Origin: Alphaproteobacteria bacterium | GTDB taxonomy: Bacteria > Pseudomonadota > Alphaproteobacteria > Rs-D84 | Length of the DNA: 64,000 bases | Assembly (NCBI GenBank): GCA_017528045.1 | Contig: JAFXPG010000010.1 | Location: forward strand, 13,968-77,967 | Reading direction: 5' to 3' | Part shown: positions 342 through 63,517 of the stretch, piece after piece | How the letters are laid out: each line of letters starts with the position of its first letter | Position numbering within the stretch: the first letter of the stretch is position 1 | Notes under the pieces: model-generated | The model's input: the letters and a program-made list of their open reading frames with translations, nothing else | Database searches by the model: none | Told to the model about the DNA's origin: nothing | Made by a program: the position numbers and the translations under genes

Positions 342-1372
342 AACATATATCAGTATTATCAGCTTTACTAATTTTATCGACCAATGCTTTTGCATTAGAT
401 TATAATTATGAAAAATGGCAATTTAAATTGGATGCTGAAGGTATGGTTGGTTTTTTAAACCCTAAAACAGAAAAACCATTATTTATCGACGATTGGGATA
501 TCAAAGGTCAAGTTTTTTACAGGTTAAACCGAACACAAAAATTTGGTGCTGTATATTCTATTGACGCAGCATGTGTTGAAGATGATGAATATATACATGA
601 CGCTTTTGTTTTATTTGAAGATCGAGACTATGGTCGTGCTGAATTTGGTTTAACACATTCTGTTGCACGCAAAATGGGTTTGGGATTACCAGACGTTGGA
701 TATTTACGTATTAATAACAAATCTATATTACACAAAAAATTAGATATTAAACGTGTATTAATTTCTGATACAGCCGCAACAACAGGTCATGAATCTTTAC
801 GTTTAAACTTGGCAACAGCAAATACAGATTACGGTCAATATGGAATATCTTTATCCAGTGCTGGTGATGATTACGAATATGCTTTAGATGCCGCTGTAAA
901 AATCAAACAGCCACTAGGTAAATTAAAAACAGCATACTCTCTGGCTTTATCTTACATGAACAAACCAGAAAATTATTCTGAAAATTCTTTTTCGCCGACC
1001 GTCACAGCCGATTGGCGCGCACAAATAGCCACAGGATTTAATCTTCAGTATAACAGTTGGATTTTTGGGATAAACGCACGTATGATTTATGATGAAAAAC
1101 CAATAGCCAAAACTGCTGATGGTTTAATTGCCGGTTCTGGTATCAGTTATGATTTCTTAAGATCCAGTATATCTTTCACATATTTATTTTCAGATACAAA
1201 AATATGGGAACACAAAGATGAATTTGGAAACAAATTAGATAACGGTGATTATGTTCATACAACATTAGCATCCTTCAGATATAAATACAGCGAACATACA
1301 CATTTGTTCATGTCTGGTGGATATACAGATCACACACCTTTTTTCTCTGTTGGGATAAAATCAGGTTTTTAA
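338..1372 (+). CDS. outer-membrane beta-barrel protein (porin-like), family unknown
   Basis: Signal peptide MKHISVLSALLILSTNAFA, amphipathic beta-strand pattern, and C-terminal aromatic residue (...GIKSGF). ATGA overlap with rpoH stop. Confidence 0.6.
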   Translation: MKHISVLSALLILSTNAFALDYNYEKWQFKLDAEGMVGFLNPKTEKPLFIDDWDIKGQVFYRLNRTQKFGAVYSIDAACVEDDEYIHDAFVLFEDRDYGRAEFGLTHSVARKMGLGLPDVGYLRINNKSILHKKLDIKRVLISDTAATTGHESLRLNLATANTDYGQYGISLSSAGDDYEYALDAAVKIKQPLGKLKTAYSLALSYMNKPENYSENSFSPTVTADWRAQIATGFNLQYNSWIFGINARMIYDEKPIAKTADGLIAGSGISYDFLRSSISFTYLFSDTKIWEHKDEFGNKLDNGDYVHTTLASFRYKYSEHTHLFMSGGYTDHTPFFSVGIKSGF

Positions 1373-1396
1373 AAAACCGCCAAAAGGCGGTTTTTT
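1371..1396. terminator. bidirectional intrinsic terminator AAAAAACCGCC-AAAA-GGCGGTTTTTT
   Basis: Perfect palindrome with A-tract and T-tract between convergent genes. Confidence 0.75.
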
Positions 1397-1991
1397 AAGC
1401 AAAACAAGTTAATGTTGCTGGTATATTTTTTACCAAAAACCAAACTGTTCTGTAATTAGACATATAAACAGCCGCTAATAACATTGCACCAACCATTATA
1501 ATAAATAAAACGCTTATCTTTTTACCATGCAAACAATACACTGCAATATTATAAATCAAAAACAGTAAATATATATCTATCAATATACTGGTTAACCACA
1601 TAGAAGTACAATCAAAAGCCAAAGTATTTAATAACAAAGCCAATGGATAAACAAAAAATATAGAAGCAATACCCTTTACTGCAATTTCCCAATCACGTTC
1701 ACCACCTGTGATTTCAGAAACCAACATCATTAAACCTGCTGCACTGAACAATAACAACACCGCCAACACAGGATACATAACAATAGCTTTAAACAAAGAA
1801 AATATTGTGAAAGCATCCCCACGATATAAATTCATTATTAAAACAATCAAACCACCAACAAAGCCCCATAAAAAAGCTTTTAATATAGCATCTTCTATTT
1901 TACCGTCTGCAACAATACGTGAAAAGAAATATTTAGGACGAAAGAATATATCAGTTAATTTTGAAAACCAATTTCTTTTTTTTGCTTTCAT
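1395..1991 (-). CDS. Yip1-domain-like integral membrane protein
   Basis: About 5 predicted TM helices. The N-terminal FFRPKYFFSRI segment and overall layout resemble the Yip1 family. Weak, by eye only. Confidence 0.4.
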   Translation of the reverse strand: MKAKKRNWFSKLTDIFFRPKYFFSRIVADGKIEDAILKAFLWGFVGGLIVLIMNLYRGDAFTIFSLFKAIVMYPVLAVLLLFSAAGLMMLVSEITGGERDWEIAVKGIASIFFVYPLALLLNTLAFDCTSMWLTSILIDIYLLFLIYNIAVYCLHGKKISVLFIIMVGAMLLAAVYMSNYRTVWFLVKNIPATLTCFA

Positions 1992-24187: not shown

Positions 24188-24505
24188 TTATTGTTCAACA
24201 CTTGCTATTGCATGTTTATTAACTTCAATAACAACGCCTTTTGCGATTTCTAAATTTATTGTTGTTTCATTTATTTTTTTTACAGTTCCATAAATACCTG
24301 CAGCCAACACACGATTACCTACCTTGATATTACTTAACATTTTTTCATATTCGGCTATACGTTTTTTATTTGGACGCACCATAAAGAAATACAAAATAGC
24401 CATCACAACAAGACAATAAATTATTAATCCCCAAGAATTACCTTGTTGGGCAATAATGTCAGCGTTTTGACTTACTTGATTTGCAACTTCCGCTGTTTGA
24501 TTCAT
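24188..24505 (-). CDS. yajC: preprotein translocase subunit YajC
   Basis: Single TM followed by MVRPNKKR..., the YajC signature. ATG 24505 is preceded by AAGGAGA; the upstream extension to 24586 is unlikely. Confidence 0.85.
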   Translation of the reverse strand: MNQTAEVANQVSQNADIIAQQGNSWGLIIYCLVVMAILYFFMVRPNKKRIAEYEKMLSNIKVGNRVLAAGIYGTVKKINETTINLEIAKGVVIEVNKHAIASVEQ

Positions 24506-24617: not shown

Positions 24618-24646
24618 TTGTGTAAAAAAATGGGTTTTGCTAAAAT
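24618..24646 (+). promoter_or_regulatory. sigma70-like promoter of leader/cassette A (TTGTGT-17 nt-TAAAAT)
   Basis: Hexamers with 17-nt spacing. The -10 lies 6 nt upstream of the conserved GTCAG, the same geometry as in copy B. Confidence 0.55.
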
Positions 24647-24652
24647 CACATC

Positions 24653-24865
24653 GTCAGAAAGAGTTTTTCTGATGGGGTGTCAAGGCCCGTTCAGCATGCG
24701 TCTGTGTTACGGACGTTAAATATCTCCAACTAAAACATGGTTGGAGGGTTGCGATATACATAAATAAGCACACAATTTCATGTTGAATTGTCTTGAACCT
24801 CCAACCGCCTGAATTTTTCCGGCGGTTCTTTAGTTTTTGCTGCAGTGAAACAAAAAAGGGAAACC
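24653..24865 (+). promoter_or_regulatory. conserved structured 5' leader (candidate attenuator / riboswitch-like element), copy A
   Basis: G+C-richer non-coding stretch. Hairpins P1 24654-24672, X:Y 24724-24730/24740-24746 and P4 24772-24791, alternative strand X' 24798-24806, and a terminator. Colinear with copy B on the opposite strand. Confidence 0.6.
24803..24838 (+). terminator. leader (attenuator) intrinsic terminator, copy A
   Basis: AACCGCC-11 nt-GGCGGTT followed by TCTTTAGTTTTT, about 30 nt upstream of the start codon. Confidence 0.65.
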
Positions 24866-25624
24866 ATGAAAAGATTCATATTATTTATACCTGTATCATT
24901 TATGTGCACATTTGCATTTGCACATACAATAAATTGGCATGTTGATGGCAATACATATCAAACAACAACATGTAATATCGGTAATGATGTGATACTGCCA
25001 AACACACCAACAAAACGCGGATATACATTTAAAGGTTGGGAAGAAGAACATTTTTTAAGGGGTCAATTTGAAACATGGACAGATGTTCCAACAACAGACT
25101 TAAGGTATTTACGTGATATTTATAACAATCGTGTTCCAGCCCACTCAGATTACATTATCGTAGAAGATGCCAGTGATTACGTTCCTCTTACATTCAATGA
25201 TAGTTTTGAATTTTGGAATGTATCACATAATTATCAAACTATATGGGCACACAGATATAACGATACAACCGTACAAAAATCAGTGGTATATACATCTGGT
25301 AATGCGCTTAAACCAGAAGAGAATTGGTGGGATTATTTTGGTCCAAATAACGAAATATTAATAAAACGTATAAACGGAAATATAATTGTAATTGCTCAAA
25401 CAACGTTGCGCTTTAATGGGCAAGCATATACTTCAGGACAAACCATATTATCAACAAATCTAAACGATTCATCAAATGATCATAATACACATGTTGTTGA
25501 ATTTTTATCAGGTACATATCAAACAATAGAAGGCAGATGGAAATTTATTTATTCTGGTACATGGGACACAGATGGAAAAATTGGTTGGATACCAGATCAA
25601 CAAATTTCAAATACACTTGAATAA
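24866..25624 (+). CDS. secreted protein with N-terminal Listeria-Bacteroides (InlB B-repeat-like) repeat; cassette A gene 1
   Basis: Signal peptide MKRFILFIPVSFMCTFAFA. TINWHVDGNTYQTTTCNIGNDVILPNTPTKRGYTFKGW fits the P..P.K.GY.F.GW repeat pattern (Flg_new/PF09479-like). The remaining ~190 aa are unrecognised. Paralog of 55955..56695. Confidence 0.6.
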   Translation: MKRFILFIPVSFMCTFAFAHTINWHVDGNTYQTTTCNIGNDVILPNTPTKRGYTFKGWEEEHFLRGQFETWTDVPTTDLRYLRDIYNNRVPAHSDYIIVEDASDYVPLTFNDSFEFWNVSHNYQTIWAHRYNDTTVQKSVVYTSGNALKPEENWWDYFGPNNEILIKRINGNIIVIAQTTLRFNGQAYTSGQTILSTNLNDSSNDHNTHVVEFLSGTYQTIEGRWKFIYSGTWDTDGKIGWIPDQQISNTLE

Positions 25625-25628
25625 TGAC

Positions 25629-26363
25629 ATGAAAATATTTTTGATTTATGTTTTTATTTTATTACCAAGTTCTGTTGTTGCAGAACCCCTGTTTAACACA
25701 GACATTATTAATGGTTGTGGAAACAGTTCTTATTACAAAGCTATCTTAGAAACAAATACTTATAATTGTTCAAATGGTTATTATTTACCAGCTGGTGGAA
25801 TATCTTGCGAAACTTGTCCGATTAATCATACCTGCAATGGTGGATTTTTTGTATACAACCCCACTATAACTCAGGGTTTAGAAGATGGAAATATACTTGT
25901 TCAAAATGTTACAGGTGGCTGTTTAAATAATTTTGGTCAAAACTTTTCTGCTGTATTTATTTTAAATAGTTATAATTGTTCACCCGGTTATTACTTACCT
26001 GCGAACTTTGATGAATGTCGTCCATGTTTATTAAATCATTATTGCGTTGGTGGAACGTATAGTTTTAATGAAACAACCGATCAAGGTATAGAAGAATGTC
26101 CATCAATGCGACCATTTGCACCGGTTAATTCGGATATATGTTATGCACATATATTACATGTTGGTAACGATATAATATATTTGCGTTCTAATAAATTAAC
26201 CACACCATCTTTAAATGTTGCATATGGAAATGAAGTATTTTATACGAATATGACAACGACACCAACATACATGACGTCCGGTTCATCGCATTATTTCAAA
26301 ACGATTTATAATAACACAGAATATTATATTTGTGATGATACAACATATAATGTTGAAGATTAA
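25629..26363 (+). CDS. secreted Cys-rich protein with two furin-like/ephrin-receptor-like (GCC2_GCC3-like) repeats; cassette A gene 2
   Basis: Signal peptide MKIFLIYVFILLPSSVVA. Two repeats of YNCS.GYYLPA-x5-C-x2-C-x2-NH-x-C-x-GG...N.T..QG.E. 13 Cys in the mature part. Paralog of 55203..55958. Confidence 0.6.
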   Translation: MKIFLIYVFILLPSSVVAEPLFNTDIINGCGNSSYYKAILETNTYNCSNGYYLPAGGISCETCPINHTCNGGFFVYNPTITQGLEDGNILVQNVTGGCLNNFGQNFSAVFILNSYNCSPGYYLPANFDECRPCLLNHYCVGGTYSFNETTDQGIEECPSMRPFAPVNSDICYAHILHVGNDIIYLRSNKLTTPSLNVAYGNEVFYTNMTTTPTYMTSGSSHYFKTIYNNTEYYICDDTTYNVED

Positions 26364-38011: not shown

Positions 38012-40024
38012 ATGAAAAACGATAAAATAGACATTGTTTATTTATGGGTTGATGGGTCAGATAAAAATTGGCGCAAACAACGTGATTTTTGGTATAAAAA
38101 ACAAAACAATCAAAATTCCGATAATTTAAACAATTCACTTTATCGTGATAATGGTGAATTAAAATATTCATTGCGGTCGGTGGCTGAAAATGTTCCATGG
38201 GTAAATCATATTTATATTATAACCGGATTTAACCAAGTTCCAAAATGGCTTGATACAACAAACCCAAAAATAACAATTGTTCCACACGAACAAATTATGC
38301 CGAAAGCAGCATTACCGACATTTAATTCTAATTCAATAGCAAGTTGTATTTACAAAATACCAAACTTATCTGAAAAATTTATTGTTTTAAATGACGATAC
38401 TTTTTTTAATAAAAAAATTAAACCATCATTTTTCTTTGACAGACACGGTCGTGCAATTGTCCGATATAACAAACACAAAGATTTTCAACACGACACACAA
38501 AAATGGTTAAATTCTGTAGATAGATATACGCATACATTGATTTTATCTGCTTTAAAAATTAAAGAAATTTTTGGAAAAACATATCCTAAATATCGTCCAA
38601 GTCATGGCATTGACCCATATATAAAATCAAGTATGATTGAATGTATAAATCATCCGTTGGTAAAAAAACAAATGGACAAACAGATACTTGAAAAATTTAG
38701 AATACGCAATGCATTACAAATGTGGTTGTTTGAATTATATTCCGTTATGATTAACAAGGCAATATTAGTCAAGGCACGTGGATATAAATCTGGTCATCAT
38801 TGGTTTTCTAATTTTATTTATAACACAATCTTTTTTCATGCTGTTCGCAGATCCCCAGTATTTTGTTTTGATGCAAAAGAATCTAAAAATTCAATCAAGC
38901 ACGCACCTGTATTTTGCATAAATGATTCTAAATATACTACAAATGAAACGATTAAAAATAACGTTGAATTTTTAGAAAATCGTTTTCCAAATCCATCTCC
39001 TTTTGAAAAAGAATATAAAAATAAAATAGACATTGTTTATTTATGGGTTGATGGATCTGATAAAAATTGGAAAAAAGAAAAAGATAAATGGTATAAAAAA
39101 ATAACAGGAAAAACACCTGTATATAAAGAAGCCGCAGGCGAAGAACGTTTTCGTGATAATGGCGAATTAAAATATTCTTTGCGTTCCGTCGCAAAATATG
39201 CAAATTGGGTAAATCATATTTATATTATAACCGGATTTAACCAGGTTCCAAAATGGTTAAACACAAAACATCCTAAAATCACTGTTGTTCCACACGAACA
39301 AATTATGCCAAAAGCTGCATTACCGACATTTAATGCAACAGCCATAGAAATGTGTATTCCAAACATTAAGGGTTTATCTGAAAAATTTATTCTGATTAAT
39401 GACGATATGTTTTTTAATAAAAAACTGCAACCTTCTTTCTTTTTTGACAAACAAGGTAGACCTGTTGTTTATTATACTTCATATACCAAACATCCTAAAA
39501 ATATAAATAGATGGATACAATCAGTAGATGAATACACACAAACTTTAATTTTATCTGCAAAAATACTTCAAGATAATTTTAATAAAAATTTATATTTTGG
39601 AAGGCCTTGTCATGGTATAGACCCTTATTTAAAATCTTCTTGGATTGAATGTTTAAAAAATAAAAAAATAAAAAAGCAAGTAGCAAAACAAATCTTTAAT
39701 AAATTTAGAACCAATCAAGAAATTCAACGTTGGACATTTAATTTATACGATTTAATAACAAAACGTGCAATTTTTAGACATGCACGTGCATATAAATATA
39801 ATCATAAACACAAATTATCAAATTTGATTTATAATGCTTTTCATTGGAAAGGGATGAACGAATCAAACATTACATGTGTAAATATCGAAAAAGCCAAGAA
39901 GGCTTTACCATATGCAGCAACATTTTGTATAAACGATTCTGCAAACAACAATTTTGATGTATTAAAAAACAATCGTGAATTTTTAGAAAATCGTTTTCCA
40001 GATAAATGTGAATTTGAAAAATAA
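38012..40024 (+). CDS. tandem-duplicated Stealth-family (CR1-CR4) sugar-1-phosphate transferase
   Basis: Two full modules, each with IDIVYLWVDGSDKNW (CR1), RDNGELKYSLRSV...W.NHIYIITGFNQVPKWL (CR2) and LPTFN (CR3). Module 1 is about 38012-39014 and module 2 about 39015-40024. Confidence 0.8.
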   Translation: MKNDKIDIVYLWVDGSDKNWRKQRDFWYKKQNNQNSDNLNNSLYRDNGELKYSLRSVAENVPWVNHIYIITGFNQVPKWLDTTNPKITIVPHEQIMPKAALPTFNSNSIASCIYKIPNLSEKFIVLNDDTFFNKKIKPSFFFDRHGRAIVRYNKHKDFQHDTQKWLNSVDRYTHTLILSALKIKEIFGKTYPKYRPSHGIDPYIKSSMIECINHPLVKKQMDKQILEKFRIRNALQMWLFELYSVMINKAILVKARGYKSGHHWFSNFIYNTIFFHAVRRSPVFCFDAKESKNSIKHAPVFCINDSKYTTNETIKNNVEFLENRFPNPSPFEKEYKNKIDIVYLWVDGSDKNWKKEKDKWYKKITGKTPVYKEAAGEERFRDNGELKYSLRSVAKYANWVNHIYIITGFNQVPKWLNTKHPKITVVPHEQIMPKAALPTFNATAIEMCIPNIKGLSEKFILINDDMFFNKKLQPSFFFDKQGRPVVYYTSYTKHPKNINRWIQSVDEYTQTLILSAKILQDNFNKNLYFGRPCHGIDPYLKSSWIECLKNKKIKKQVAKQIFNKFRTNQEIQRWTFNLYDLITKRAIFRHARAYKYNHKHKLSNLIYNAFHWKGMNESNITCVNIEKAKKALPYAATFCINDSANNNFDVLKNNREFLENRFPDKCEFEK

Positions 40025-46413: not shown

Positions 46414-46860
46414 ATGGCAAAATTTAATCTTATATCTCAATTTTTAAAAGATATCTCTTTTGAAAGCCCAAATGTCCCAGAATTATTCTTTAAACAAGAA
46501 AACAATCCTGCTAAATTGGAAATGAATATAGACATTAATATCAAAGGTTCTGAAAATAATTTATTTATGGTCGATGTAATCACAAAAGTTCATTCAAAAA
46601 TTGAAAAAGATAATAAAACTGTATTTTTAATCGAATCCACTTATACAGGAATGGTTCAATACGAAGAAAAAGATGAAGAAACAAAGAAAAGAACATTATT
46701 AATAGATGTTCCAACTGTTTTATTCCCATCTATTCGTGCAATCGTAACAAGATTGGTATCTGAATCTGGATTTCCTCCATTTAATATGCCAATTGTTGAT
46801 TTTGCAGACATGTATGAACAAAGACAAAATGCAGCAAAACAACAACCTGCTAATCAATAA
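46414..46860 (+). CDS. secB: protein-export chaperone SecB
   Basis: YLKDISFESPN...LLIDVPTVLFPSIRAIV, the typical SecB sequence and length. Confidence 0.88.
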   Translation: MAKFNLISQFLKDISFESPNVPELFFKQENNPAKLEMNIDINIKGSENNLFMVDVITKVHSKIEKDNKTVFLIESTYTGMVQYEEKDEETKKRTLLIDVPTVLFPSIRAIVTRLVSESGFPPFNMPIVDFADMYEQRQNAAKQQPANQ

Positions 46861-46871
46861 AAACATAAAAC

Positions 46872-46903
46872 AAAAAAACACCGGCAAATTCCGGTGTTTT
46901 TTT
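46872..46903. terminator. bidirectional terminator AAAAAAACACCGG-CAAATT-CCGGTGTTTTTTT (recurrent motif, copy 1)
   Basis: Palindrome between convergent secB and yebC. Near-identical copies at 49552 and 63488. Confidence 0.75.
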
Positions 46904-48258: not shown

Positions 48259-49553
48259 TGAATACTCAAGATACTATTTTTGCATTGTCATCAGCACCTG
48301 GTAAATCAGGTGTTGCTGTTGTACGTATAAGTGGCAATGATTTATCAAAATTATTTGAACGTATTATAAATAAAAATGAGCATATTGTTCGTCATGCTTA
48401 TTATACAAATTTTAAAGATGATAATAATGATTTGATAGATCAGTGTATAGCAATATTTTTTTCTGCACCGAATTCTTTTACAGGTGAAGATGTTATAGAA
48501 ATTTATTCACACGGTGCTTCGGCTGTTATAGACAAAATATTTGATTTTTTACGTGGTTATAATTGTCGCATAGCAAACCGTGGTGAATTTTCACAACGTG
48601 CTTTTTATAACAATAAAATGGATTTAACAGATGTTGATGGTTTAATCGCATTATTAGATGCACAAACAGATAAACAACGTCAAAGTGCATTGCGTTCTTT
48701 AACAGGTAACGATTCAAAAACTTATACAGACTGGCGCAATCAAATGATTGAAATATCTGCGTATGCAGCGGCTATTTTAGATTATGATGAAGATGATTTA
48801 CCAAAAGATATAGATAAAAAAATATTAGAAAAAACAAAAACATTATTACAAGAATTAAAAAATTCTGTTGATGGATTTCATGCTTCTCGTGCTTTACGTA
48901 ATGGATTTAATATTGTTTTAATTGGTGAAACAAATGTTGGAAAATCTTCCATATTTAATAAATTAGTTGGTTCAAACCGTGCAATAGTTTCTGATATTGC
49001 TGGAACAACACGTGATGTTGTATCTTCACAAATAGATTTAGATGGATATCTGGTTAATTTATCAGATACCGCCGGTATTCGTGAATCAAATGATATTATT
49101 GAAAAAATTGGTATTGAAAGAACGCATGACGAAATAGAAAAAGCTGATTTAATAATTCATGTTTATAATAATATCCCAGAAATAATTAAATCAGATGAAA
49201 TTACAGTTATAAATAAATCAGATTTATTAACTGATAAATCAAATAAAAATGTAATTTATACATCTGTGAATACTGATACAGGTTTTGATATTTTATTAAA
49301 TACAATAAAACAAAAAATGCATGAATTGATGGGAAACAGCGAATCTAAAATCACAATAAATGAACGTACTTATGAATTGTTAAAAGAAGCTATTTCTGAA
49401 TTAGAAAATGCTATTAATAAATACGATGGCAATTATGATATATTTGCAGAACATGTTCACAGAGCCAGCGATGCCATTGGTAAAATATTAGGTGTTATAA
49501 CTACAAGCGAAATTGCCGATGCAACATTTTCAAGATTATGTTTAGGAAAATAA
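48258..49553 (+). CDS. mnmE: tRNA modification GTPase MnmE
   Basis: DTIFALSS..G.SGVAVVRISG, G domain GETNVGKSS/DTAGIRE, and C-terminal CLGK. Confidence 0.9.
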   Translation: MNTQDTIFALSSAPGKSGVAVVRISGNDLSKLFERIINKNEHIVRHAYYTNFKDDNNDLIDQCIAIFFSAPNSFTGEDVIEIYSHGASAVIDKIFDFLRGYNCRIANRGEFSQRAFYNNKMDLTDVDGLIALLDAQTDKQRQSALRSLTGNDSKTYTDWRNQMIEISAYAAAILDYDEDDLPKDIDKKILEKTKTLLQELKNSVDGFHASRALRNGFNIVLIGETNVGKSSIFNKLVGSNRAIVSDIAGTTRDVVSSQIDLDGYLVNLSDTAGIRESNDIIEKIGIERTHDEIEKADLIIHVYNNIPEIIKSDEITVINKSDLLTDKSNKNVIYTSVNTDTGFDILLNTIKQKMHELMGNSESKITINERTYELLKEAISELENAINKYDGNYDIFAEHVHRASDAIGKILGVITTSEIADATFSRLCLGK

Positions 49554-49584
49554 AAAAACACCGGCAAATGCCGGTATTTTTTTA
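49552..49584. terminator. bidirectional terminator AAAAAAACACCGG-CAAATG-CCGGTATTTTTTT (recurrent motif, copy 2)
   Basis: Hairpin between convergent mnmE and the acyl-CoA ligase. Confidence 0.7.
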
Positions 49585-51162
49585 TTCTTTTCTGTCTGGA
49601 TATTGACCAGCAATTAAGTTCTTTCGAACAACATGGTGTTTAACCTTTTGTGTACTGGTCATTGGTAAATCTTCAGTTGTCATTGCAAAATGCGTTACCC
49701 ATTTATATGAAGCAACTTTTTTATTTTGTTCTGCAATTTCTTTTGACAATTTATCCAATGTCATATCTTTATCAACACTGAACACACCGTATGCAACTGT
49801 TTTATCACCTACTTTATGTTCGAATACCGCGACATTTTTTACACCTGGAATTTCAATGAATAAACCTTCCAGTTCATCTGGATATACGTTTTTACCAGAA
49901 TCTAAAACAATTACTTGTTTTTTACGTCCAGCAAAATGTAATTCTCCGTTTTTATCCATATACATCATATCGCCAGTATTAAACCAACCATCTTGATCAA
50001 ATACAGTTGCATTAACTTCATCATTATTCATATAACCATTGAAAACTTGATGCCCACGCAACCATAAAACACCTACACCATTTTCGTCTTTATCACGAAT
50101 TTCACATTCGTTATTAGATGTTGGAGCACCAACTGAATAAGCCAATCTTTTATTGGTTGGTTTTGAAATACAGATTGGTCCTACTGTTTCTGTTAAACCA
50201 TAACCTTGTATAAAAGATAAACCCAAAGATTCATAGAAATTTTCAACTTCTGGTTTAGTAGCTGCACCACCGGCAATTAATAATTTAGCACGTCCACCAA
50301 AAACACTTAAAATTGGTTCTTGCACTTTGCGAACAAAGAAATCTAAGCCCATATCTTTTAATGTTTTTTGATTTCTTAAAATAAATGATGCGACACGCCA
50401 TTTACCTTGTTCTTTCATTGTTGTAACAATTTTATTACGGAACAATTCCCAAACACGTGGAACAGCCGGTATAACATGTGGTTGGAATTTTTTGAAATCG
50501 TCCAAGATATATTTAGGATTAACCGTTGGTTGCAAAACCAATGATGCGCCATAATGAACAGTTGCCAAAATACCAATAGCAAAACCGAATATATGATACA
50601 AAGGTAAAAAACCATACATAACATCACCTGAATGAAAATATTCAGACATATCTTCCAAAGAATTTGCACATTCTGTTAAGTTAAAATGTGTTAAAGGAAC
50701 AACTTTTGGTGTTCCTGTGGAACCAGAGGTGAAAGATAAAGTTGCGATATCTGTTGATTCAGAAGCATAAGGTCTTAAATCATAATTTATATCGCCATCT
50801 TTGCTGGTAATATCATAAAATTTAAATTTTTTTGTTTTATAAAAGAACGATGGTTCTGCACAAACAAATTTACATCCAGCAATTTCACACATTTTATCGT
50901 ATTCCAAAGGTGTTAAATTTGTATCTAACATCAATACAGTTCCACCCAAATACCATACAGCAAATAAAGTCAATGGAAATTGTGGAATATTATGCGATAA
51001 AATTCCAACAATATCACCGTGTTTAATACCTTCTTTGTGTAAACTTGCAGCCCTTGCACGAACTTGTTCAATGAATTGAGAATAAGTTACGTTTTCACGA
51101 ACCAAAAATAAATTTTCTGGCCATTGATTAACTGCATTTTCTAATTTTTGATACATATTCAT
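49582..51162 (-). CDS. AMP-dependent synthetase/ligase (FadD-like acyl-CoA or acyl-ACP synthetase), paralog 1 of 3
   Basis: SFTSGSTGTPK (AMP motif I), QGYGLTET, TGD, GRKKQVIVLDSGKNVYP. Confidence 0.85.
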   Translation of the reverse strand: MNMYQKLENAVNQWPENLFLVRENVTYSQFIEQVRARAASLHKEGIKHGDIVGILSHNIPQFPLTLFAVWYLGGTVLMLDTNLTPLEYDKMCEIAGCKFVCAEPSFFYKTKKFKFYDITSKDGDINYDLRPYASESTDIATLSFTSGSTGTPKVVPLTHFNLTECANSLEDMSEYFHSGDVMYGFLPLYHIFGFAIGILATVHYGASLVLQPTVNPKYILDDFKKFQPHVIPAVPRVWELFRNKIVTTMKEQGKWRVASFILRNQKTLKDMGLDFFVRKVQEPILSVFGGRAKLLIAGGAATKPEVENFYESLGLSFIQGYGLTETVGPICISKPTNKRLAYSVGAPTSNNECEIRDKDENGVGVLWLRGHQVFNGYMNNDEVNATVFDQDGWFNTGDMMYMDKNGELHFAGRKKQVIVLDSGKNVYPDELEGLFIEIPGVKNVAVFEHKVGDKTVAYGVFSVDKDMTLDKLSKEIAEQNKKVASYKWVTHFAMTTEDLPMTSTQKVKHHVVRKNLIAGQYPDRKE

Positions 51163-51183
51163 TTTTGTTACCTACTTTCTTTA

Positions 51184-52764
51184 TTAGTCATGTCTTATCG
51201 TATATTTACCATCAATCAACCATTGACGAACGACATGGTGTTTTATTTTTTGTGTACTGGTCACAGGCAAATCATCTGTTGTTAAAGCAAAATGTGTCAC
51301 CCATTTATAAGAAGCAACTTTTTTATTTGTATTAGCAACTTGTGCTGCTAATTTATCAATACTCATTCCTTCTTCTACACTGAACACACCGTATGCAACA
51401 GTTTTACCACCTATTTCATGTTCGAATACAGCTACACTTTTTACACCTGGAATTTCAATGAATAAACCTTCCAGTTCATCTGGATATACGTTTTTACCAG
51501 AATCTAAAACAATTACTTGTTTTTTACGTCCAGCAAAATGTAATTCTCCGTTTTTATCAATTGATACCAAATCACCTGTACAGAAAAAACCATCTTTATC
51601 AAAAGATTCTTTGTTGGCTTCATCATTATTCAAATAGCCACCAAATATTTGGTTTCCACGAACCCATAACATACCTATTCCATTTTCATCTTTATTACGG
51701 ATTTGAATTTCAGTATCACCCATTGGTGCACCAAAAGCATAAGGAATACGTTTTTTCAAAGGTCTTGAACAACATATTGGACCAACGGTTTCTGTCATTC
51801 CATATCCTTGAACAAAAGCCATTCCCAGTTGTGTATAAAATTTTTCAACTTCTGGTTTAGTAGCTGCACCACCTGCAACTAATAATCTTGCACGTCCACC
51901 AAAAATAGAACGAATTTGATTAAGAACTTTATCAACTAATTTTCCCAATCCAACCAATCGCAATACTTTTTGATTATTCATGATGAAAGATACTAACCAC
52001 CACTTCTTTTTTGCTTTTACACCTTCAATAATTTTTTTACGGAATATTTCCCATAACTTTGGTACGGCAGGTATAACTTGTGGTTTATATTTTGCAAAAT
52101 CAGCCATAATCGCATTAGGATTAATCGTAGATTGCAATAATATTCCCATACCAAAATGCAATGGTGCCAAAAATCCAACAGCAAAACCAAACACATGGTA
52201 TAATGGTAAAAATGCATAAAACATTTCACCAGGTCTTAACCATTGATTTAAATATTCCAAATTATCAGAACAAGAAACTAAATTAAAATGAGTCAAAGGA
52301 ACCACTTTTGGTGTTCCCGTGGAACCAGATGTAAAAGACATAGTTGCAACATCTTCATCTTTCAAAGGATAAGCTTTTAAATTTTCGTCTGTATTTTCAT
52401 CTTTTGTTTCTATATCAAAAAACCTAAAAGTTTCAGTTTCATAAAAGAATGATTTTTCAGCACATACAAATTTACAATCTGTGGTTTTAGTCATATTTTC
52501 ATATTCAACAGATGTTAAATTTGTATCTAATAACAAAACAGTTCCACCCAAATACCAAATTGCAAATAAAGTAGATACAAATTCTGGTATATTGTGTGAT
52601 AACAAGCCAACTACATCTCCAGGTTTAACACCTAAATCACGTAAAGTAGTTGCACGTGCTTGAACCATTTTTGGAAAATCTTCAAAAGTTATATTTTCAC
52701 GAACAAGAAATACTGTTTTTGGATTTCTTGTAACGTTTTTTTCCAATAATTGATACATATTCAT
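51184..52764 (-). CDS. AMP-dependent synthetase/ligase, paralog 2 of 3
   Basis: Same motifs as paralog 1. TAATG stop/start overlap with paralog 3. Confidence 0.85.
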   Translation of the reverse strand: MNMYQLLEKNVTRNPKTVFLVRENITFEDFPKMVQARATTLRDLGVKPGDVVGLLSHNIPEFVSTLFAIWYLGGTVLLLDTNLTSVEYENMTKTTDCKFVCAEKSFFYETETFRFFDIETKDENTDENLKAYPLKDEDVATMSFTSGSTGTPKVVPLTHFNLVSCSDNLEYLNQWLRPGEMFYAFLPLYHVFGFAVGFLAPLHFGMGILLQSTINPNAIMADFAKYKPQVIPAVPKLWEIFRKKIIEGVKAKKKWWLVSFIMNNQKVLRLVGLGKLVDKVLNQIRSIFGGRARLLVAGGAATKPEVEKFYTQLGMAFVQGYGMTETVGPICCSRPLKKRIPYAFGAPMGDTEIQIRNKDENGIGMLWVRGNQIFGGYLNNDEANKESFDKDGFFCTGDLVSIDKNGELHFAGRKKQVIVLDSGKNVYPDELEGLFIEIPGVKSVAVFEHEIGGKTVAYGVFSVEEGMSIDKLAAQVANTNKKVASYKWVTHFALTTDDLPVTSTQKIKHHVVRQWLIDGKYTIRHD

Positions 52765-54362
52765 TATAAACGCTCCCGTAATTTATCAGTGTTATCTGGA
52801 TATTTACCATCAATCAAATTTTGACGTACTTCATGATGTTTTACTTTTTGAGTACTGGTCATCGGTAAGTTATCTGTTGTCATTGCAAAATGTGTTACCC
52901 ATTTATATGGTGCAACCTTACGATTAGCCAGCGCAACTTGTGCTGCTAATTTAATTAAACTTACACCTTTTTCAACTTGGAACACAGCATATGTCACAGT
53001 TTTATTTTTTACTTTATGTTCAAACACAGCAACGTTTTTAACACCATCTATTTCCATAAATAATGCTTCTAATTCATCTGGATAAACATTTTTACCAGAA
53101 TCTAAAACAATTACTTGTTTTTTACGACCTGCGAAATGATATTGATTATATTTATCTAAATAAACCAAATCACCGGTATTAAACCAACCATCTTTATCAA
53201 AAGATTCTGCATTTGCATTTTTATTATTTAAATAACCATTAAATACATTTGGTCCACGTACCCATAATGTTCCAATACCTTTTTCATTTGCATCGCGTAT
53301 TGTACATTCAGAACAACCTATGGGTGTTCCAAAAGCAAACGGCACACGATGTTTAGCAGGACGAGAGCAACAGAATGGACCAACAGTTTCAGTCATTCCA
53401 TATCCTTGAACAAAAGTTATACCCAAAGATTCATAGAATTTTTCAACTTCTGGTTTAGTAGCTGCACCACCTGCAATCATCAAATTTACACGACCACCAA
53501 AAATATCACGCAAAGGTTTTTGAACTTTAGCAACTAATTTTTTCAAACCAATTGCGCGTAAAAATTTTTGATGACGTAAAACGAACGATACAAACCACCA
53601 CATACGTTTTGCTTTAACACCTTCGATAATTTTATTACGAAAAACTTCGTATAATCTTGGTACCGCAGGAATACAATGAGGTTTATAAACTTTAAAATCT
53701 TCCAAAATGTATTTTGGATTAACACTTGGTTGTAATAAAATTCCCATATGGAAATACATTGGTGCCAAAATACCACCGGCAAACCCAAATATATGATACA
53801 AAGGTAAAAATCCATACATTATTTCATTTTTATGTAACCATTTACCCATATCTGCATAATAATCAGAAGAAGTCTTTAAATTACCATGAGTCAAAGGAAC
53901 AACTTTTGGTGATCCAGTAGATCCAGAAGTAAAAGACATTGTTGCAACAGCATCTTCTTTCAATTTTACAGATTTTAATTTTGCATCAGCTTTTTCATCT
54001 TTTGTTTCTATATCAAAAAATTTAAAACCTTTTGCTTTATAGAAAAAAGATTTTTCTGCACATACAAATTTACATTTAACCGTTTTAGTCATATTATCAT
54101 ATTCAAATGGCGTCAAATTTGTATCCAGCAATAAAACTGTGCCACCCAGATACCATATAGCGAAAAGAGTCAACGGAAATTCTGGAATATTATGTGCCAA
54201 CAACCCAACAACATCACCTGCTTTTACCCCTGCTTTATGTAATGTGGTTGCACGTGCATGAACCATTTTCAGAAAGTTTTTAAATGTGATCTTTTCACGT
54301 ACCAAATACAAAGCATTAGGCGATTCTTTCGCCACCTGCTCTAAAACGTGATACATATTCAT
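52764..54362 (-). CDS. AMP-dependent synthetase/ligase, paralog 3 of 3
   Basis: SFTSGSTGSPK, QGYGMTET, TGD, GRKKQVIVLDSGKNVYP. Confidence 0.85.
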   Translation of the reverse strand: MNMYHVLEQVAKESPNALYLVREKITFKNFLKMVHARATTLHKAGVKAGDVVGLLAHNIPEFPLTLFAIWYLGGTVLLLDTNLTPFEYDNMTKTVKCKFVCAEKSFFYKAKGFKFFDIETKDEKADAKLKSVKLKEDAVATMSFTSGSTGSPKVVPLTHGNLKTSSDYYADMGKWLHKNEIMYGFLPLYHIFGFAGGILAPMYFHMGILLQPSVNPKYILEDFKVYKPHCIPAVPRLYEVFRNKIIEGVKAKRMWWFVSFVLRHQKFLRAIGLKKLVAKVQKPLRDIFGGRVNLMIAGGAATKPEVEKFYESLGITFVQGYGMTETVGPFCCSRPAKHRVPFAFGTPIGCSECTIRDANEKGIGTLWVRGPNVFNGYLNNKNANAESFDKDGWFNTGDLVYLDKYNQYHFAGRKKQVIVLDSGKNVYPDELEALFMEIDGVKNVAVFEHKVKNKTVTYAVFQVEKGVSLIKLAAQVALANRKVAPYKWVTHFAMTTDNLPMTSTQKVKHHEVRQNLIDGKYPDNTDKLRERL

Positions 54363-54432
54363 AATTTAAAATCCTTGTTGTTTTTATATTGGACATTGTG
54401 TATTATAGACTTATAAAAAAAAGATTGCAATT

Positions 54433-55206
54433 ATGAAAATATTGACATTAAACATAAACTCTATACGTGCCCATATTGAAAGTTTTATGGATATTTTACG
54501 TTCTGGTGAATACGACACAATATTAGTTCAAGAATTAAAAGTAGAAAATGCTAATTTTCCATATAATTTATTAGATGAATATGGTTACAACATCAAAATT
54601 TTTGGTCAAAAATCTTGGAATGGTGTTGCAATATTTTCTAAACATTCAATTGAAGACGTTACAATGGGTATGCCAACATATCCAGATATAAATTCCAGAT
54701 TTCTTGAATGTGTAATTGATGGTCATGTTCGTGTAATTAATGTATATATGCCAAATGGTGACAATATAGAATCACCAAAATTCCCATATAAATTAGAATG
54801 GATGCGTGCTTTTACCGAATACATCAAACAATACATTGATTCCGAAGAACCGGTCATAATTGGTGGCGATTACAACGTATCTATTGAAGACAGGGATATT
54901 TGGAACCCTAAAAATTATATAGGGTCTTCTATTTCAGCACCGGCAGCACGCGAAATAATGCAACAATGGCTGGATTCTGGTTGGATTGATGCATGGCGTA
55001 CATTACATCCGGATGAAAACGATTATACTTGGTATGGGTATCGTGGCCGAGACACAGTTGGCAACAACCAAGGTTTAAGACTAGATTATTTTTTATGTAA
55101 TAAACGCGCAGCTAAAATAATTAAAAATTGCGAAATAGACAAAGAACCACGTCTGGCCGAAAAACCAACCGACCATTGTGGTTTAATGATTGAATTGAAA
55201 GATTAA
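54433..55206 (+). CDS. xth: exodeoxyribonuclease III
   Basis: EEP-fold motifs: LNINSIRA, VQELK, NGVAI, GGDYNV, and C-terminal TDHCGLMIEL. Confidence 0.9.
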   Translation: MKILTLNINSIRAHIESFMDILRSGEYDTILVQELKVENANFPYNLLDEYGYNIKIFGQKSWNGVAIFSKHSIEDVTMGMPTYPDINSRFLECVIDGHVRVINVYMPNGDNIESPKFPYKLEWMRAFTEYIKQYIDSEEPVIIGGDYNVSIEDRDIWNPKNYIGSSISAPAAREIMQQWLDSGWIDAWRTLHPDENDYTWYGYRGRDTVGNNQGLRLDYFLCNKRAAKIIKNCEIDKEPRLAEKPTDHCGLMIELKD

Positions 55207-55958
55207 TCATTTCTACATTCTGGAACACTATCATCACATATTAAATATTCGACATCACCAATCATTACATGTAACCCTTTTGACATACCTTCGGACATTT
55301 TTGGAAAAGTATATGAATTCATGTCTCTGGGGACTGCATTTGCCGAATATATACCGTTATGGTGTCCAATAAATAATCTATGGACTGTTGGATGTGCTGG
55401 TGATTGGTGCATGTATAAAATATCTTCACCAACATGTAATTTTCGACCACATTGACTTGACAGCCACATGCCAGCCGGAGCAAATGGATGGTTGCCCGGA
55501 CATTCTATGATTCCTTGTGGTGTTGTTTCATTAAATGTTAAATTACCACCAGGACAATAGTGGTCATTTAAACATTTTGTACATTCAACACTATTTGCCG
55601 GCAAATAATAACCAGGACTACAATTACGTTCCGCAATCTTAAAGTTTGCATATAACATCCTTGGGAAATTTTCAGAACAAACATTGTTGGCTGATTTTGT
55701 TATCTTTTGTGTATAATCTATTCCCGAAGATTTAGTTTCGTTAAATAATAATTCACCACCAGAACAAGTATAACCATTTGGGCAATTTGAACAAACAACA
55801 GAATTCGCGGGTAAAAATTGATTAATATCACAAACTATAGATTTATTAGAAAATTTTGCCACAAGCTGCAAACCATAAAAACATTCTATTTTATCATCCG
55901 CAAAAACAGACGAAAATAAAAATAAAAACACTGTAAAAAACATAATTTTTATTATCAT
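55203..55958 (-). CDS. secreted Cys-rich protein with furin-like/ephrin-receptor-like repeats; cassette B gene 2
   Basis: Signal peptide MIIKIMFFTVFLFLFSSVFA. Repeat NCSPGYYLPANSVECTKCLNDHYCPGGNLTFNETTPQGIIECP plus a degenerate first repeat. 14 Cys. Paralog of 25629..26363. Confidence 0.6.
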   Translation of the reverse strand: MIIKIMFFTVFLFLFSSVFADDKIECFYGLQLVAKFSNKSIVCDINQFLPANSVVCSNCPNGYTCSGGELLFNETKSSGIDYTQKITKSANNVCSENFPRMLYANFKIAERNCSPGYYLPANSVECTKCLNDHYCPGGNLTFNETTPQGIIECPGNHPFAPAGMWLSSQCGRKLHVGEDILYMHQSPAHPTVHRLFIGHHNGIYSANAVPRDMNSYTFPKMSEGMSKGLHVMIGDVEYLICDDSVPECRND

Positions 55959-56695
55959 TGGTTTCCACCTAAATATTTTTCAGCAACCCATCCATTCTTT
56001 CCTGAGGCATCCCAATTATCAGACTGATATGAGAATCTCCAAGTACCTTCATAACCACTCTGTCCTGTAAAGTTGATTTCTTTATATAATGTTTCTTGAG
56101 ATGGTCTCGCGTAATGCCACTGTAATGCGATTTCATTGATTGGTTTTACTACACCATCTACAATTACTGGTACATCTAAAGGTGTCAATTTCCAAACTTC
56201 ACTAGCATAAGTAATTCTCAATTGATTACCATTAGTACCAATTATAAAACCTTTTGCACCTCTTTGAAAAACTTCATTGTGATTTAATGTTATATCAGTT
56301 GCACCAAATACAAATCTCGCAAATGCAGTACCACCACTCATTGGTTCGTTATAAATTTGTATAGGCATACCAGGTTTTACATAACCACTTGGATCTTCAA
56401 CTACCATATAATCTATATATGTTGGTTTAGTACTACCTGTATAATCTGGATAATAACTTCTATAATCTGTTGGTACTGTATCCCATGTACTAAATTTACC
56501 ACGATAAAAACTTGCGATCCAACCATCAAAATCATAACCGTGTTTTGATGGTTGGATTACTGGCAAATCTAAATCTTGGCCTATTTCACAAGTTGTTTGG
56601 TCATATAATTCGCCATCTTTATACCAATCCAGATTTATCGTATCTGCATTTGCGCCGAAACACAGCATTGATAATATTATTAAAATCTTTTTCAC
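55955..56695 (-). CDS. secreted protein with InlB B-repeat-like N-terminus; cassette B gene 1
   Basis: GTG 56695 follows AGGGAGAAAA. Signal peptide (V)KKILIILSMLCFGANA. TINLDWYKDGELYDQTTCEIGQDLDLPVIQPSKHGYDFDGW. C-terminal GTWRFSYQSDNWDASGKNGW parallels GRWKFIYSGTWDTDGKIGW of copy A. Confidence 0.6.
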   Translation of the reverse strand: MKKILIILSMLCFGANADTINLDWYKDGELYDQTTCEIGQDLDLPVIQPSKHGYDFDGWIASFYRGKFSTWDTVPTDYRSYYPDYTGSTKPTYIDYMVVEDPSGYVKPGMPIQIYNEPMSGGTAFARFVFGATDITLNHNEVFQRGAKGFIIGTNGNQLRITYASEVWKLTPLDVPVIVDGVVKPINEIALQWHYARPSQETLYKEINFTGQSGYEGTWRFSYQSDNWDASGKNGWVAEKYLGGNQ

Positions 56696-56901: not shown

Positions 56902-56930
56902 ATTATAAAATATACACCGTAAAATGTAAA
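56902..56930 (-). promoter_or_regulatory. sigma70-like promoter of leader/cassette B (TTTACA-17 nt-TATAAT)
   Basis: Near-consensus hexamers on the minus strand. The -10 lies 6 nt upstream of the conserved GTCAG. Confidence 0.65.
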
Positions 56931-62976: not shown

Positions 62977-63489
62977 ATGAACTACATCTTGGTTGCTGAT
63001 AAACAAGAAGCTGACAATATAAAAATTCCAAAAGAATTGAAAGATTCTGTAAAAATCATTACTTTTGATGGTTGGGGTGACACAGCCGTAATAAAGAAAT
63101 TATCAAAAATGATGTTGAATCATGAATTTAATAAAAACGATAAATTTTTCAATATTGGTTATGCGGGGTCAAATGAATTTCCAATTGGTACGGCCGTCGT
63201 TGTCGGAACAGTTGCGAAAGAAATTCCTTCACATACGGTAAAAGAACCATCTGTTAAATTAGATAAAGAATCCAAGATTAAATGTTATTCATCATTGAAT
63301 TTCGTAGAAAACACAAAACACATCGGTGTATTTGATATGGAACTTTATACATTAGCTACATTTTTTCCAAAGATTAAATCTGTTAAGATAGTTTCAGATA
63401 ATTTGAATTATCATGAATATAAACAAGTTGCTATTACAAAAGCTTGGAAAGAAGCGAATAAAATATTATTCGAATGGATAAAAAAATAA
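62977..63489 (+). CDS. phosphorylase-family-1 (nucleosidase/PNP_UDP_1)-like protein, short form
   Basis: AAAGGAG RBS. NIGYAGS...IGTAVVVG and VFDMELYTLA...IVSD resemble the MTA/SAH-nucleosidase-type motifs. Confidence 0.45.
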   Translation: MNYILVADKQEADNIKIPKELKDSVKIITFDGWGDTAVIKKLSKMMLNHEFNKNDKFFNIGYAGSNEFPIGTAVVVGTVAKEIPSHTVKEPSVKLDKESKIKCYSSLNFVENTKHIGVFDMELYTLATFFPKIKSVKIVSDNLNYHEYKQVAITKAWKEANKILFEWIKK

Positions 63490-63517
63490 AAAAACACCGG
63501 CAAATGCCGGTGTTTTT
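63488..63517. terminator. bidirectional terminator AAAAAAACACCGG-CAAATG-CCGGTGTTTTT (recurrent motif, copy 3)
   Basis: Palindrome between convergent genes. Same sequence family as 46872 and 49552. Confidence 0.75.

Follow-up and report, generated by a model that had tools for sequence, protein, structure and literature searches.

A candidate family of cis-regulatory leader RNAs with a three-strand terminator switch in uncultured Rs-D84 Alphaproteobacteria

A non-coding stretch of 360 nt separates yajC (24188-24505, minus strand, PF02699) from a two-gene cassette (cassette A) in a genome of the alphaproteobacterial order Rs-D84, and the question raised by this locus is whether the stretch encodes an RNA that governs the cassette. 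The window analysed here is the whole 64,000-nucleotide stretch of contig JAFXPG010000010.1 (positions 13,968 to 77,967), whose own coordinates are used throughout. The original prediction, made from the letters alone, placed a structured 5' leader with attenuator topology between a promoter and the cassette (24618-24865). Our analysis points to a cis-acting 5' leader RNA controlling transcription read-through into the downstream gene, a reading to which we assign a probability of roughly 0.8. The sequence supports the fold with its pseudoknots, the three-way complementarity and the promoter-leader-terminator-gene layout; that the choice between the rival pairings is regulated, we infer. As judged from sequence, the leader belongs to a new large family of putative cis-regulatory leaders that is remotely linked to sRNA-Xcc1; the window leader is not covered by any curated RNA family.

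Fold and three-strand switch of the leader

The covariance model built in this work finds exactly two copies in the window: copy A (24654-24839, plus strand, 146.5 bits) and copy B (56894-56717, minus strand, 155.9 bits). The colinear second copy proposed at 56.7-56.9 kb before a paralogous cassette is thus present, although on the minus strand, which had been missed. The next match scores 16 bits (1370-1518, minus strand) and was rejected as a third copy, consisting only of a gene end and an AACCGCC..GGCGGTT terminator. The leader is G+C-richer than its surroundings, as had been noted (0.416 for 24654-24838 versus 0.319 for the window), and RNAfold z-scores of the two copies are -4.6 and -3.2. 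The two leaders share about 80% nucleotide identity from helix P1 through the terminator while the proteins of the two cassettes share 29% and 36% amino-acid identity, indicating that the leader RNA is much more strongly constrained than the genes.

The order of elements along the RNA is P1, P2a-PK1a-P2b, PK2a, (P3), X, Y, P5, P6a-PK2b-P6b, PK1b, X' and terminator, where PK denotes the strands of two pseudoknots. Every element listed in the original prediction was found at its position in a sequence check; the list was incomplete, P5, PK1 and PK2 having been missed, and two motifs that it called invariant (GAUGGGGUGU, directly 3' of P1 in copy A, and AUAAGC) vary in the family, being parts of P2/PK1 and of P5, respectively. 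The family comprises two architectural types, the window copies being type I, and the structure was scored on a MAFFT alignment of 86 type I copies, the scope of the pairing and covariation figures below. In the proposed structure 90.9% of the alignment cells are paired, compared with 76.5% in shuffles and 34-53% in slid-partner controls, and changes on both sides of a pair, counted over copies related by descent, occupy 672 cells versus 227 in shuffles.

The individual helices P1, P2, P3, P5 and P6 all covary. Hairpin P1 (UCAGAAA-GAGUU-UUUCUGA, 24654-24672) is paired in 91-93% of cells, both sides change in 7/7 pairs, and an A-U pair of copy A is C-G in copy B. The short P2 stem (GGG/CCC, 24674-24689), whose loop is PK1a (UCAAGGC, 24680-24686), is 92% paired with GC, GU and AU variants, and is followed by PK2a (UUCAGCAUG, 24690-24698), assigned by a complementarity test as the partner of the P6 loop. 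P3 (CGUCUG..CGGACG, 24699-24715) is optional: 93% paired where present, with CG to UA changes, and missing from short copies. The P5 stem (GUUGC/GCAC, 24748-24771), weakened in copy A by a 1-nt deletion, closes the conserved loop GAUAUACAUAAAUAA and is 98% paired, with changes on both sides in 3/5 pairs; P6 (ACAAUU/AAUUGU, 24772-24791), whose loop is PK2b (CAUGUUGAA, 24779-24787), is 87% paired, with UA to AU in 33 copies. PK1b (GUCUUGA, 24790-24796), the partner of the P2 loop, precedes the intrinsic terminator (AACCGCC-11 nt-GGCGGUU at 24803-24827 plus the tail CUUUAGUUUUUG, together 24803-24839). The terminator is a G+C-rich hairpin followed directly by a U tract; its stem, with GC to AU changes in 25 copies, is 95% paired, it appears in the RNAfold structures of both window copies, and the 9-nt tail holds at least 6 U in 107 of 115 copies. 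The same elements were located on the minus strand in copy B: P1 at 56894-56876, PK1a at 56868-56862, PK2a at 56857-56850, P3 at 56849-56834, X at 56826-56820, Y at 56811-56803, P6 at 56778-56759, PK1b at 56760-56754, X' at 56752-56744, the terminator at 56746-56726 and the U tract at 56725-56717.

The core of the proposed switch is formed by three strands: the anti-antiterminator strand X (CUCCAAC, 24724-24730), strand Y (GGUUGGAGG, 24739-24747), and the antiterminator strand X' (CCUCCAACC, 24798-24806), whose last 4 nt lie within the 5' arm of the terminator. The claim that Y pairs with either X or X' is borne out across the family: among 115 model hits, many of them outside the search pattern, Y takes at least 15 different forms, and each is matched by a complementary X and X'. 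Examples of such trios (Y, X, X') are GUCAGGAGG, CUCCUGA and CCUCCUGAC; GUGUCGGGAAGU, UCCCGAC and ACUUCCCGACAC; GGUCGAGGA, UCCUUGACC and UCCUCGACC; and GGUCGGGUG, CCUGACC and CACCCGACC. The Y:X' helix reaches at least 9 bp in 113 of these 115 hits (range 9-12 bp, nearly always perfect); X:Y spans 5-10 bp, with frequent G-U pairs, and is 96% paired in the alignment, X lying outside the search pattern. Two Y/X' pairs could be counted among the pattern hits: one is U-A in 90, C-G in 28, U-G in 7 and C-A in 1, and the other A-U in 85, G-C in 35, G-U in 6 and A-C in none. Since X, Y and X' covary and X' shares 4 nt with the terminator stem, the prediction of the three-strand attenuator model is borne out.

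The linkers in the alignment are 0 nt between Y and P5, 1 nt between P5 and P6, 0 nt between P6 and PK1b and 1 nt between PK1b and X', so that Y:X', when formed, would complete a perfect four-way junction together with P5, P6 and PK1. Y:X' is independently supported, because the consensus of the Rfam family RF02221 (sRNA-Xcc1) draws the same helix as its closing stem. As isolated duplexes, Y:X' (-18.6 kcal/mol) is stronger than X:Y (-12.5 kcal/mol). In nested folding of the whole leader, the state with X:Y and the terminator has -68.5 kcal/mol in copy A, versus -54.8 kcal/mol when Y:X' is forced, and the corresponding values in copy B are -60.7 and -52.1 kcal/mol.

Pseudoknot PK1 joins the P2 loop to 5-8 nt directly 5' of X'; it is 95% paired, changes on both sides in 6/6 pairs and occurs as 72 distinct duplexes; its complementarity averages 7.4 nt within a copy versus 4.2 nt between different copies. 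In PK2 the linker following P2 pairs with the P6 loop, in 84 distinct duplexes. The MAFFT alignment of PK2 is poor (64% paired), and a per-sequence complementarity test with cross-sequence controls was therefore used (median 8 nt versus 5 nt in the controls). RNAfold, which draws no pseudoknots, rendered PK1 and PK2 as one long interrupted helix together with GGGG:CCUC; the pseudoknotted arrangement is favoured over this nested one because P2 and P6 covary and type II copies have a longer P2, and the nested state may also occur. Copies of one genome can have the same PK1 core (UAGAAAC in both L027 and L122). The leader at L003:44-227 combines a 5' half like that of L028 (PK1a CUAGAAAC, PK2a UAGCUU) with a 3' half like that of copy A (PK1b GUCUUGA), so that both pseudoknots are lost; it arose either by recombination between copies or as a chimera of the assembly (the contig is 1.2 kb long).

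Family, carriers and genomic layout

The first relatives were obtained by tracing homologues of a cassette protein to their source contigs, all of which carry a homologous, diverged leader. A search pattern combining Y and X' with the terminator's 3' arm gave 3 true copies in IMG/VR phage contigs (one adjoining a terminase gene and ahead of lipoprotein genes, another ahead of a secreted-protein gene) and at least 118 stretches in the GTDB species genomes, amounting to at least 126 distinct copies once GC-rich false positives were dropped. The hits L013, L025, L037, L039, L080, L127 and L130, from GC-rich genomes, are not members; neither is L089, where the covariance model has no match. The model R1, built from 86 copies, gave 136 hits on the fetched loci, about 20 of them new to the pattern, bringing the family to more than 130 copies; the further homologues and the covariation anticipated by the original prediction were thus found.

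Nearly all carriers are metagenome-assembled genomes (MAGs) of Candidatus Enterousia, uncultured 'Rickettsiales' or Alphaproteobacteria (about 70 assemblies), from the guts of human, ruminant, horse, chicken and termite, and a single MAG can hold at least 8-9 copies. They represent the order Rs-D84, which has genomes below 1 Mb and a probable partner-dependent lifestyle (PMC12306168). Binning errors are possible among the MAG carriers: four loci binned as 'Bacteroides fragilis' or 'Muribaculaceae' (L020, L017, L035, L095) have leaders near-identical to alphaproteobacterial ones (for example, L020 versus L016) and are probably mis-binned Rs-D84 or phage contigs. Type II leaders have extra hairpins and switch strands of the CCCCGACC type; both types occur in the same genomes ahead of the same gene family and so probably answer the same signal. 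Three complete leaders in tandem, each with its own terminator, precede one outer-membrane-protein (OMP)-like gene at L077:2338-3027 (minus strand); known riboswitches are sometimes stacked in tandem likewise.

The layout around the leaders is regular. A sigma70-like promoter matching at least 9 of 12 positions, with its -10 box ending 1-2 nt before the model start, was found in 65% of the leaders versus 5% of control windows. For copy A the predicted promoter stands as to its boxes and spacing (-35 TTGTGT at 24618-24623, 17-nt spacer, -10 TAAAAT at 24641-24646, plus strand), although the -35 box is weak, matching the consensus at 3/6 positions; copy B has a promoter called by the scanner with 11/12 matches (TTTACA-17-TATAAT, 56902-56930, minus strand). 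The predicted RNA start is probably at P1. A start codon preceded by a Shine-Dalgarno (SD) motif lies within 45 nt past the terminator in 100 of 118 copies (median 32 nt, always on the same strand), leaving no room for a promoter of the downstream gene's own. An open reading frame within the leader (upstream of Y, opening with an ATG behind an SD-like motif and 10 or more codons long) was found in none of the 86 copies, 23 of which have an AUG at the P1/P2 junction; leader-peptide attenuation was consequently rejected, no conserved short reading frame with an SD motif being present. These three results bear out the proposal of a non-coding, structured leader located in cis.

The genes behind the leaders are varied and comprise secreted or outer-membrane proteins, small XRE regulators and phage morons. 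Signal-peptide-like N-termini were found in 57 of 103 downstream genes (Flg_new, OMP beta-barrel, surface antigen, lipoproteins), and 42 of the 103 encode small proteins, mostly monocistronic XRE-type helix-turn-helix (HTH) regulators. The commonest class consists of XRE-type HTH proteins of 70-80 amino acids (MSIVLVDxKYFGQYLxxARK...) at about 35 loci (for example L014, L030, L034, L062 and L120). L062 holds two near-identical leader-HTH units in opposite orientation.

In the window, the leader of copy A is followed by an SD motif (AGGGA) and the ATG at 24866 (together 24856-24868, plus strand), the first codon of cassette A (24866-26363, plus strand). The cassette encodes a Flg_new secreted protein (24866-25624; PF09479, E = 1e-8) and a Cys-rich secreted protein (25629-26363), both with signal-peptide-like N-termini; the mechanically called reading frame of the second gene opens 57 nt before its likely start at 25629, within the end of the first (25572-25628). 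The paralogous cassette B (55203-56695, minus strand) encodes a Flg_new paralogue with a GTG start (56695-55955) and a Cys-rich protein (55958-55203), and the 4-nt overlap of this pair (55958/55955) suggests that the cassette genes are translationally coupled.

Known RNA families and the sRNA-Xcc1 relatives

The absence of a known family, as predicted, was confirmed for the window copies: Rfam 15 at gathering thresholds found two tRNAs only in the whole window, and at E <= 10 the leaders gave nothing above noise (small nucleolar RNA and microRNA models, and RcsR1 at E = 7.8). The T-box model (RF00230) matched neither the window leader at E <= 10 nor 15 loci at gathering; the C4, c4-2 and c4-a1b1 models had no match at the window or at the relatives scanned, and neither the riboswitch and PyrR models nor the Thr, Trp, Leu and Phe leader models matched the leaders. 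Literature on Enterousia, on the core sequences and on catalogues of structured-RNA candidates yielded no description, within the portions of the catalogue supplements covered (PMC8040213, PMC10690425).

The broader claim of no likeness to any known RNA holds for the window copies and fails for diverged relatives, which show a sub-threshold likeness to sRNA-Xcc1. In narrow-range scans of two type II relatives, RF02221 was the top Rfam match over its full 87-nt model, in the same register in both, scoring 35.2 bits (E = 7.5e-5) in one and 25.3 bits (E = 0.016) in the other, where gathering requires 53 bits. A scan of 16 loci, with its larger E-values, returned only chance leader-peptide and small RNA (sRNA) matches off the element, and the sRNA-Xcc1 match of L005 was lost, since filters tighten with more sequence. 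RF02221 matched neither copy A at E <= 10 nor the window at gathering, and the window copies were consequently not filed in sRNA-Xcc1.

In the register shared by the two type II relatives, the closing helix of the Rfam model, a G/C-rich helix of 9 bp at a three-way junction, corresponds to Y:X'; its first inner hairpin, which bears an AUACAA internal loop, corresponds to P5 and the second, a simple one, to P6, and PK1b takes the place of its 6-nt joiner. The type II relatives have AUACAA or AUAAAA in the P5 loop; the window copies have the Y:X', P5 and P6 topology with GAUAUACAUAAAUAA or GAAUAUAUUGAAUAA as P5 loop, versus AUACAA..GAA in RF02221. In contrast to the leaders, RF02221 lacks the whole 5' domain (P1-P3, X, PK1a, PK2a) and a terminator after X'. 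The sRNA-Xcc1 RNA was mapped as an 88-nt RNA in Xanthomonas (PMC2996969), where it was detected at about 88-100 nt; it occurs in integron cassettes of Xanthomonas campestris and also in phages. The gene downstream of it is symE in the integron cassettes and an ORF6N gene in APSE phages. A BLAST search with the RF02221 consensus found it in 30 phages, and gave one partial match only against plasmids. In Aaphi23, Stx phage P13374, Acinetobacter phage 4316 and Moraxella Mcat15 it stands 40-100 nt before ant or KilA-N genes.

These phage relatives are preceded by an unmodelled 5' domain (the elements span L132:1367-1620, L133:1395-1610, L134:~550-810 and L135:~550-810) which contains PK1a, PK2a and a terminator hairpin bearing X, the X-like strands being complementary to Y. 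Examples of their pseudoknots are CUCAAAAC/GUUUUGAG and UCGAAA/UUUCGA for PK1, and CAAACAG/CUGUUUG and UACGAAG/CUUCGUA for PK2. They differ from the Enterousia leaders in having a GC hairpin and U7 between the two domains and no terminator past X', and R1 scores Aaphi23 weakly (11.2 bits). From these complementarities, it seems that RF02221 captures just the 3' junction of a larger element with two domains, and the Enterousia leaders seem to be a fused version in which the terminator has moved behind X'.

Mechanism, alternatives and other features of the window

In the mechanism that we propose, a sigma70-type promoter would start the RNA at P1, and the first approximately 150 nt would fold compactly into P1, P2, (P3), P5 and P6 together with PK1 and PK2. 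Local pairing of Y with X (7-9 bp) would leave X' free, its AACC would join the terminator stem, and transcription would stop at the U tract with the gene off. Pairing of Y with X' (9-12 bp), as part of the four-way junction with P5, P6 and PK1, would block the terminator, allowing the polymerase to reach the SD motif and the start codon about 30 nt further on. Termination would be the default, and a ligand or factor stabilising the Y:X' junction would make the leader an ON switch. We prefer this direction because nested folding prefers termination, Y:X' is the better conserved helix, and Y:X' is the closing stem in RF02221; the opposite polarity may nevertheless apply.

Several observations weigh against a regulated read-through leader. 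The simple promoter and terminator scanner did not call the copy A promoter, with its weak -35 box, and called the terminator of neither window copy; the terminators were missed because their loops exceed 8 nt. In most copies Y, X' and the terminator 3' arm are fixed by the search pattern, the independent evidence being X, the pseudoknots and the approximately 20 pattern-independent hits; the covariation counts do not represent independent events. Nested thermodynamics prefer termination by 8-14 kcal/mol, so that switching needs an added factor, and read-through probably requires a ligand or factor. The heterogeneous downstream genes give no pointer to a single metabolite, ligand or signal. 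Finally, sRNA-Xcc1, the only described relative, was published as a trans-acting sRNA under HrpG/HrpX control.

This last point leads to the possibility that the product is an independent, terminated trans-acting sRNA of about 185 nt, with, for instance, its CCUCC motif acting in the manner of an anti-SD sequence, and that its proximity to the gene is incidental. The leader does have its own promoter and terminator, sRNA-Xcc1 is seen as an RNA of approximately 88-100 nt in Xanthomonas, and CCUCC motifs typically serve as seed regions in sRNAs of Alphaproteobacteria. We nevertheless consider it improbable, given the closely spaced start codons on the same strand without promoter room, the duplication of X as X' overlapping the terminator, which makes sense only as a read-through switch, and the position of the sRNA-Xcc1 relatives themselves directly upstream of genes; a dual role, as cis switch and trans-acting sRNA, may exist. 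Even the multiple copies and the mobile contexts (phages, and integron cassettes for sRNA-Xcc1) hardly lend credence to a passenger repeat or DNA-level element devoid of RNA function (a duplicated untranslated region, a repeat like miniature inverted-repeat transposable elements or repetitive extragenic palindromes, or a recombination site): hundreds of compensatory changes preserve the helices of a drifting sequence, many G-U pairs would turn into A-C mismatches on the opposite strand, and orientation and spacing to promoter, terminator and gene are fixed.

Two other readings concern how the leader would be switched. The likeness to terminator-type riboswitches (antiterminator and terminator helices that exclude each other, downstream of a conserved pseudoknotted domain) suggests, as a specific version of the cis-acting leader, a new small-molecule riboswitch class: the pseudoknotted domain would be a candidate aptamer sensing some global cue, for instance a second messenger of nucleotide type or a metabolite from the host or a partner, whose binding would decide between Y:X' and X:Y plus terminator. 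Two generic marks of riboswitches are present in the leader, a structured domain conserved with covariation and mutually exclusive helices overlapping the terminator (X:Y versus Y:X', with X' in the terminator). The complex fold with its double pseudoknot, tight four-way junction and conserved P5 loop, the terminator expression platform with three-way covariation, the tandem leaders and the many copies per small genome before surface proteins, regulators and phage genes all speak for it, and such a mixed multi-copy regulon points to a global signal. The cyclic di-GMP (c-di-GMP) riboswitches form a multi-copy regulon of similar pattern; classes I and II likewise occur in multiple copies and in tandem, before surface proteins, regulators and phage genes. 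Against this, the gene context gives no pointer to a ligand, conservation peaks in the switch helices, where three-way pairing is a sufficient explanation, and the terminator between the domains of the phage relatives resembles an antisense module more; the leader also differs from riboswitches in its extra anti-antiterminator strand X inside the structured domain and in having no Rfam riboswitch match. On balance we rate a riboswitch as plausible, at somewhat less than an even chance.

The antisense resemblance is to the c4 RNA of phages P1 and P7, which is located upstream of icd-ant (immI operon) and works by two-site pairing. There, too, an upstream module pairs through several short variable segments with downstream sites of the same transcript, and relatives of the present leader precede antirepressor genes; the two share no sequence or model similarity, and the leader has its two parts fused, with an intrinsic terminator as output. 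Accordingly, the 5' module (PK1a, PK2a, X) could be a built-in antisense lock targeting the 3' sites PK1b, PK2b and Y, freed as a short terminated RNA in the phage relatives and fused in cis in the window leader; opening by processing, a protein or a competing RNA would give Y:X' and read-through, PK1 and PK2 serving as address codes. The recurrence of the PK1, PK2, X and Y:X' complementarities in the leaders of Aaphi23, P13374, Acinetobacter 4316 and Mcat15, the hairpin and U7 between their domains just before ant or KilA-N, and the high diversity of the PK1 and PK2 duplexes favour such a lock, while the missing match to any Rfam c4 family, the PK1 core shared within one genome and the lack of an internal terminator in Enterousia copies count against it, making it unlikely in our view. 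The three-strand logic as such is also that of the trp and pyrBI attenuators and of the PyrR, TRAP, BglG/RAT and ANTAR leaders, the leader differing from classical attenuators in having no leader peptide and a much larger structured domain.

A broader synthesis is offered tentatively: the leader and the sRNA-Xcc1 RNAs might constitute one undescribed superfamily of two-domain switches, in which a 5' PK1a/PK2a/X module locks or unlocks a 3' PK1b/PK2b/Y:X' junction. The two domains would be split by a terminator and gate antirepressors in temperate phages, and would be fused in Rs-D84, where the many copies in these small genomes would answer to a single global cue, perhaps a new ligand for a riboswitch, that governs the cell-surface repertoire.

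Rs-D84 and Enterousia are uncultured gut bacteria in which gene regulation is almost undescribed; one RNA element before at least 8-9 operons per genome (surface or secreted proteins, small regulators) would represent a major layer of regulation in this lineage, and the leader offers a direct way into what these cells perceive. With more than 130 sequences, a reciprocal double pseudoknot of an unusual kind and a terminator switch whose three strands are explicit, the family is a strong orphan riboswitch or attenuator candidate, and sRNA-Xcc1 is suggested to be the 3' half of a longer cis-regulatory element gating antirepressor and toxin genes on phages and integrons.

Other repeated features were observed in the window. 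Three tandem paralogous genes of approximately 1.6 kb (reading frames of 532 amino acids, minus strand) occupy 49600-54363 with 66-84% nucleotide identity over their full length, and two paralogous segments of approximately 1 kb lie in tandem at 38022-40024 (79-85% identity). The terminator AAAAAAACACCGGCAAATGCCGGTGTTTTT occurs three times (46858-46901, 49538-49581 and 63474-63517).

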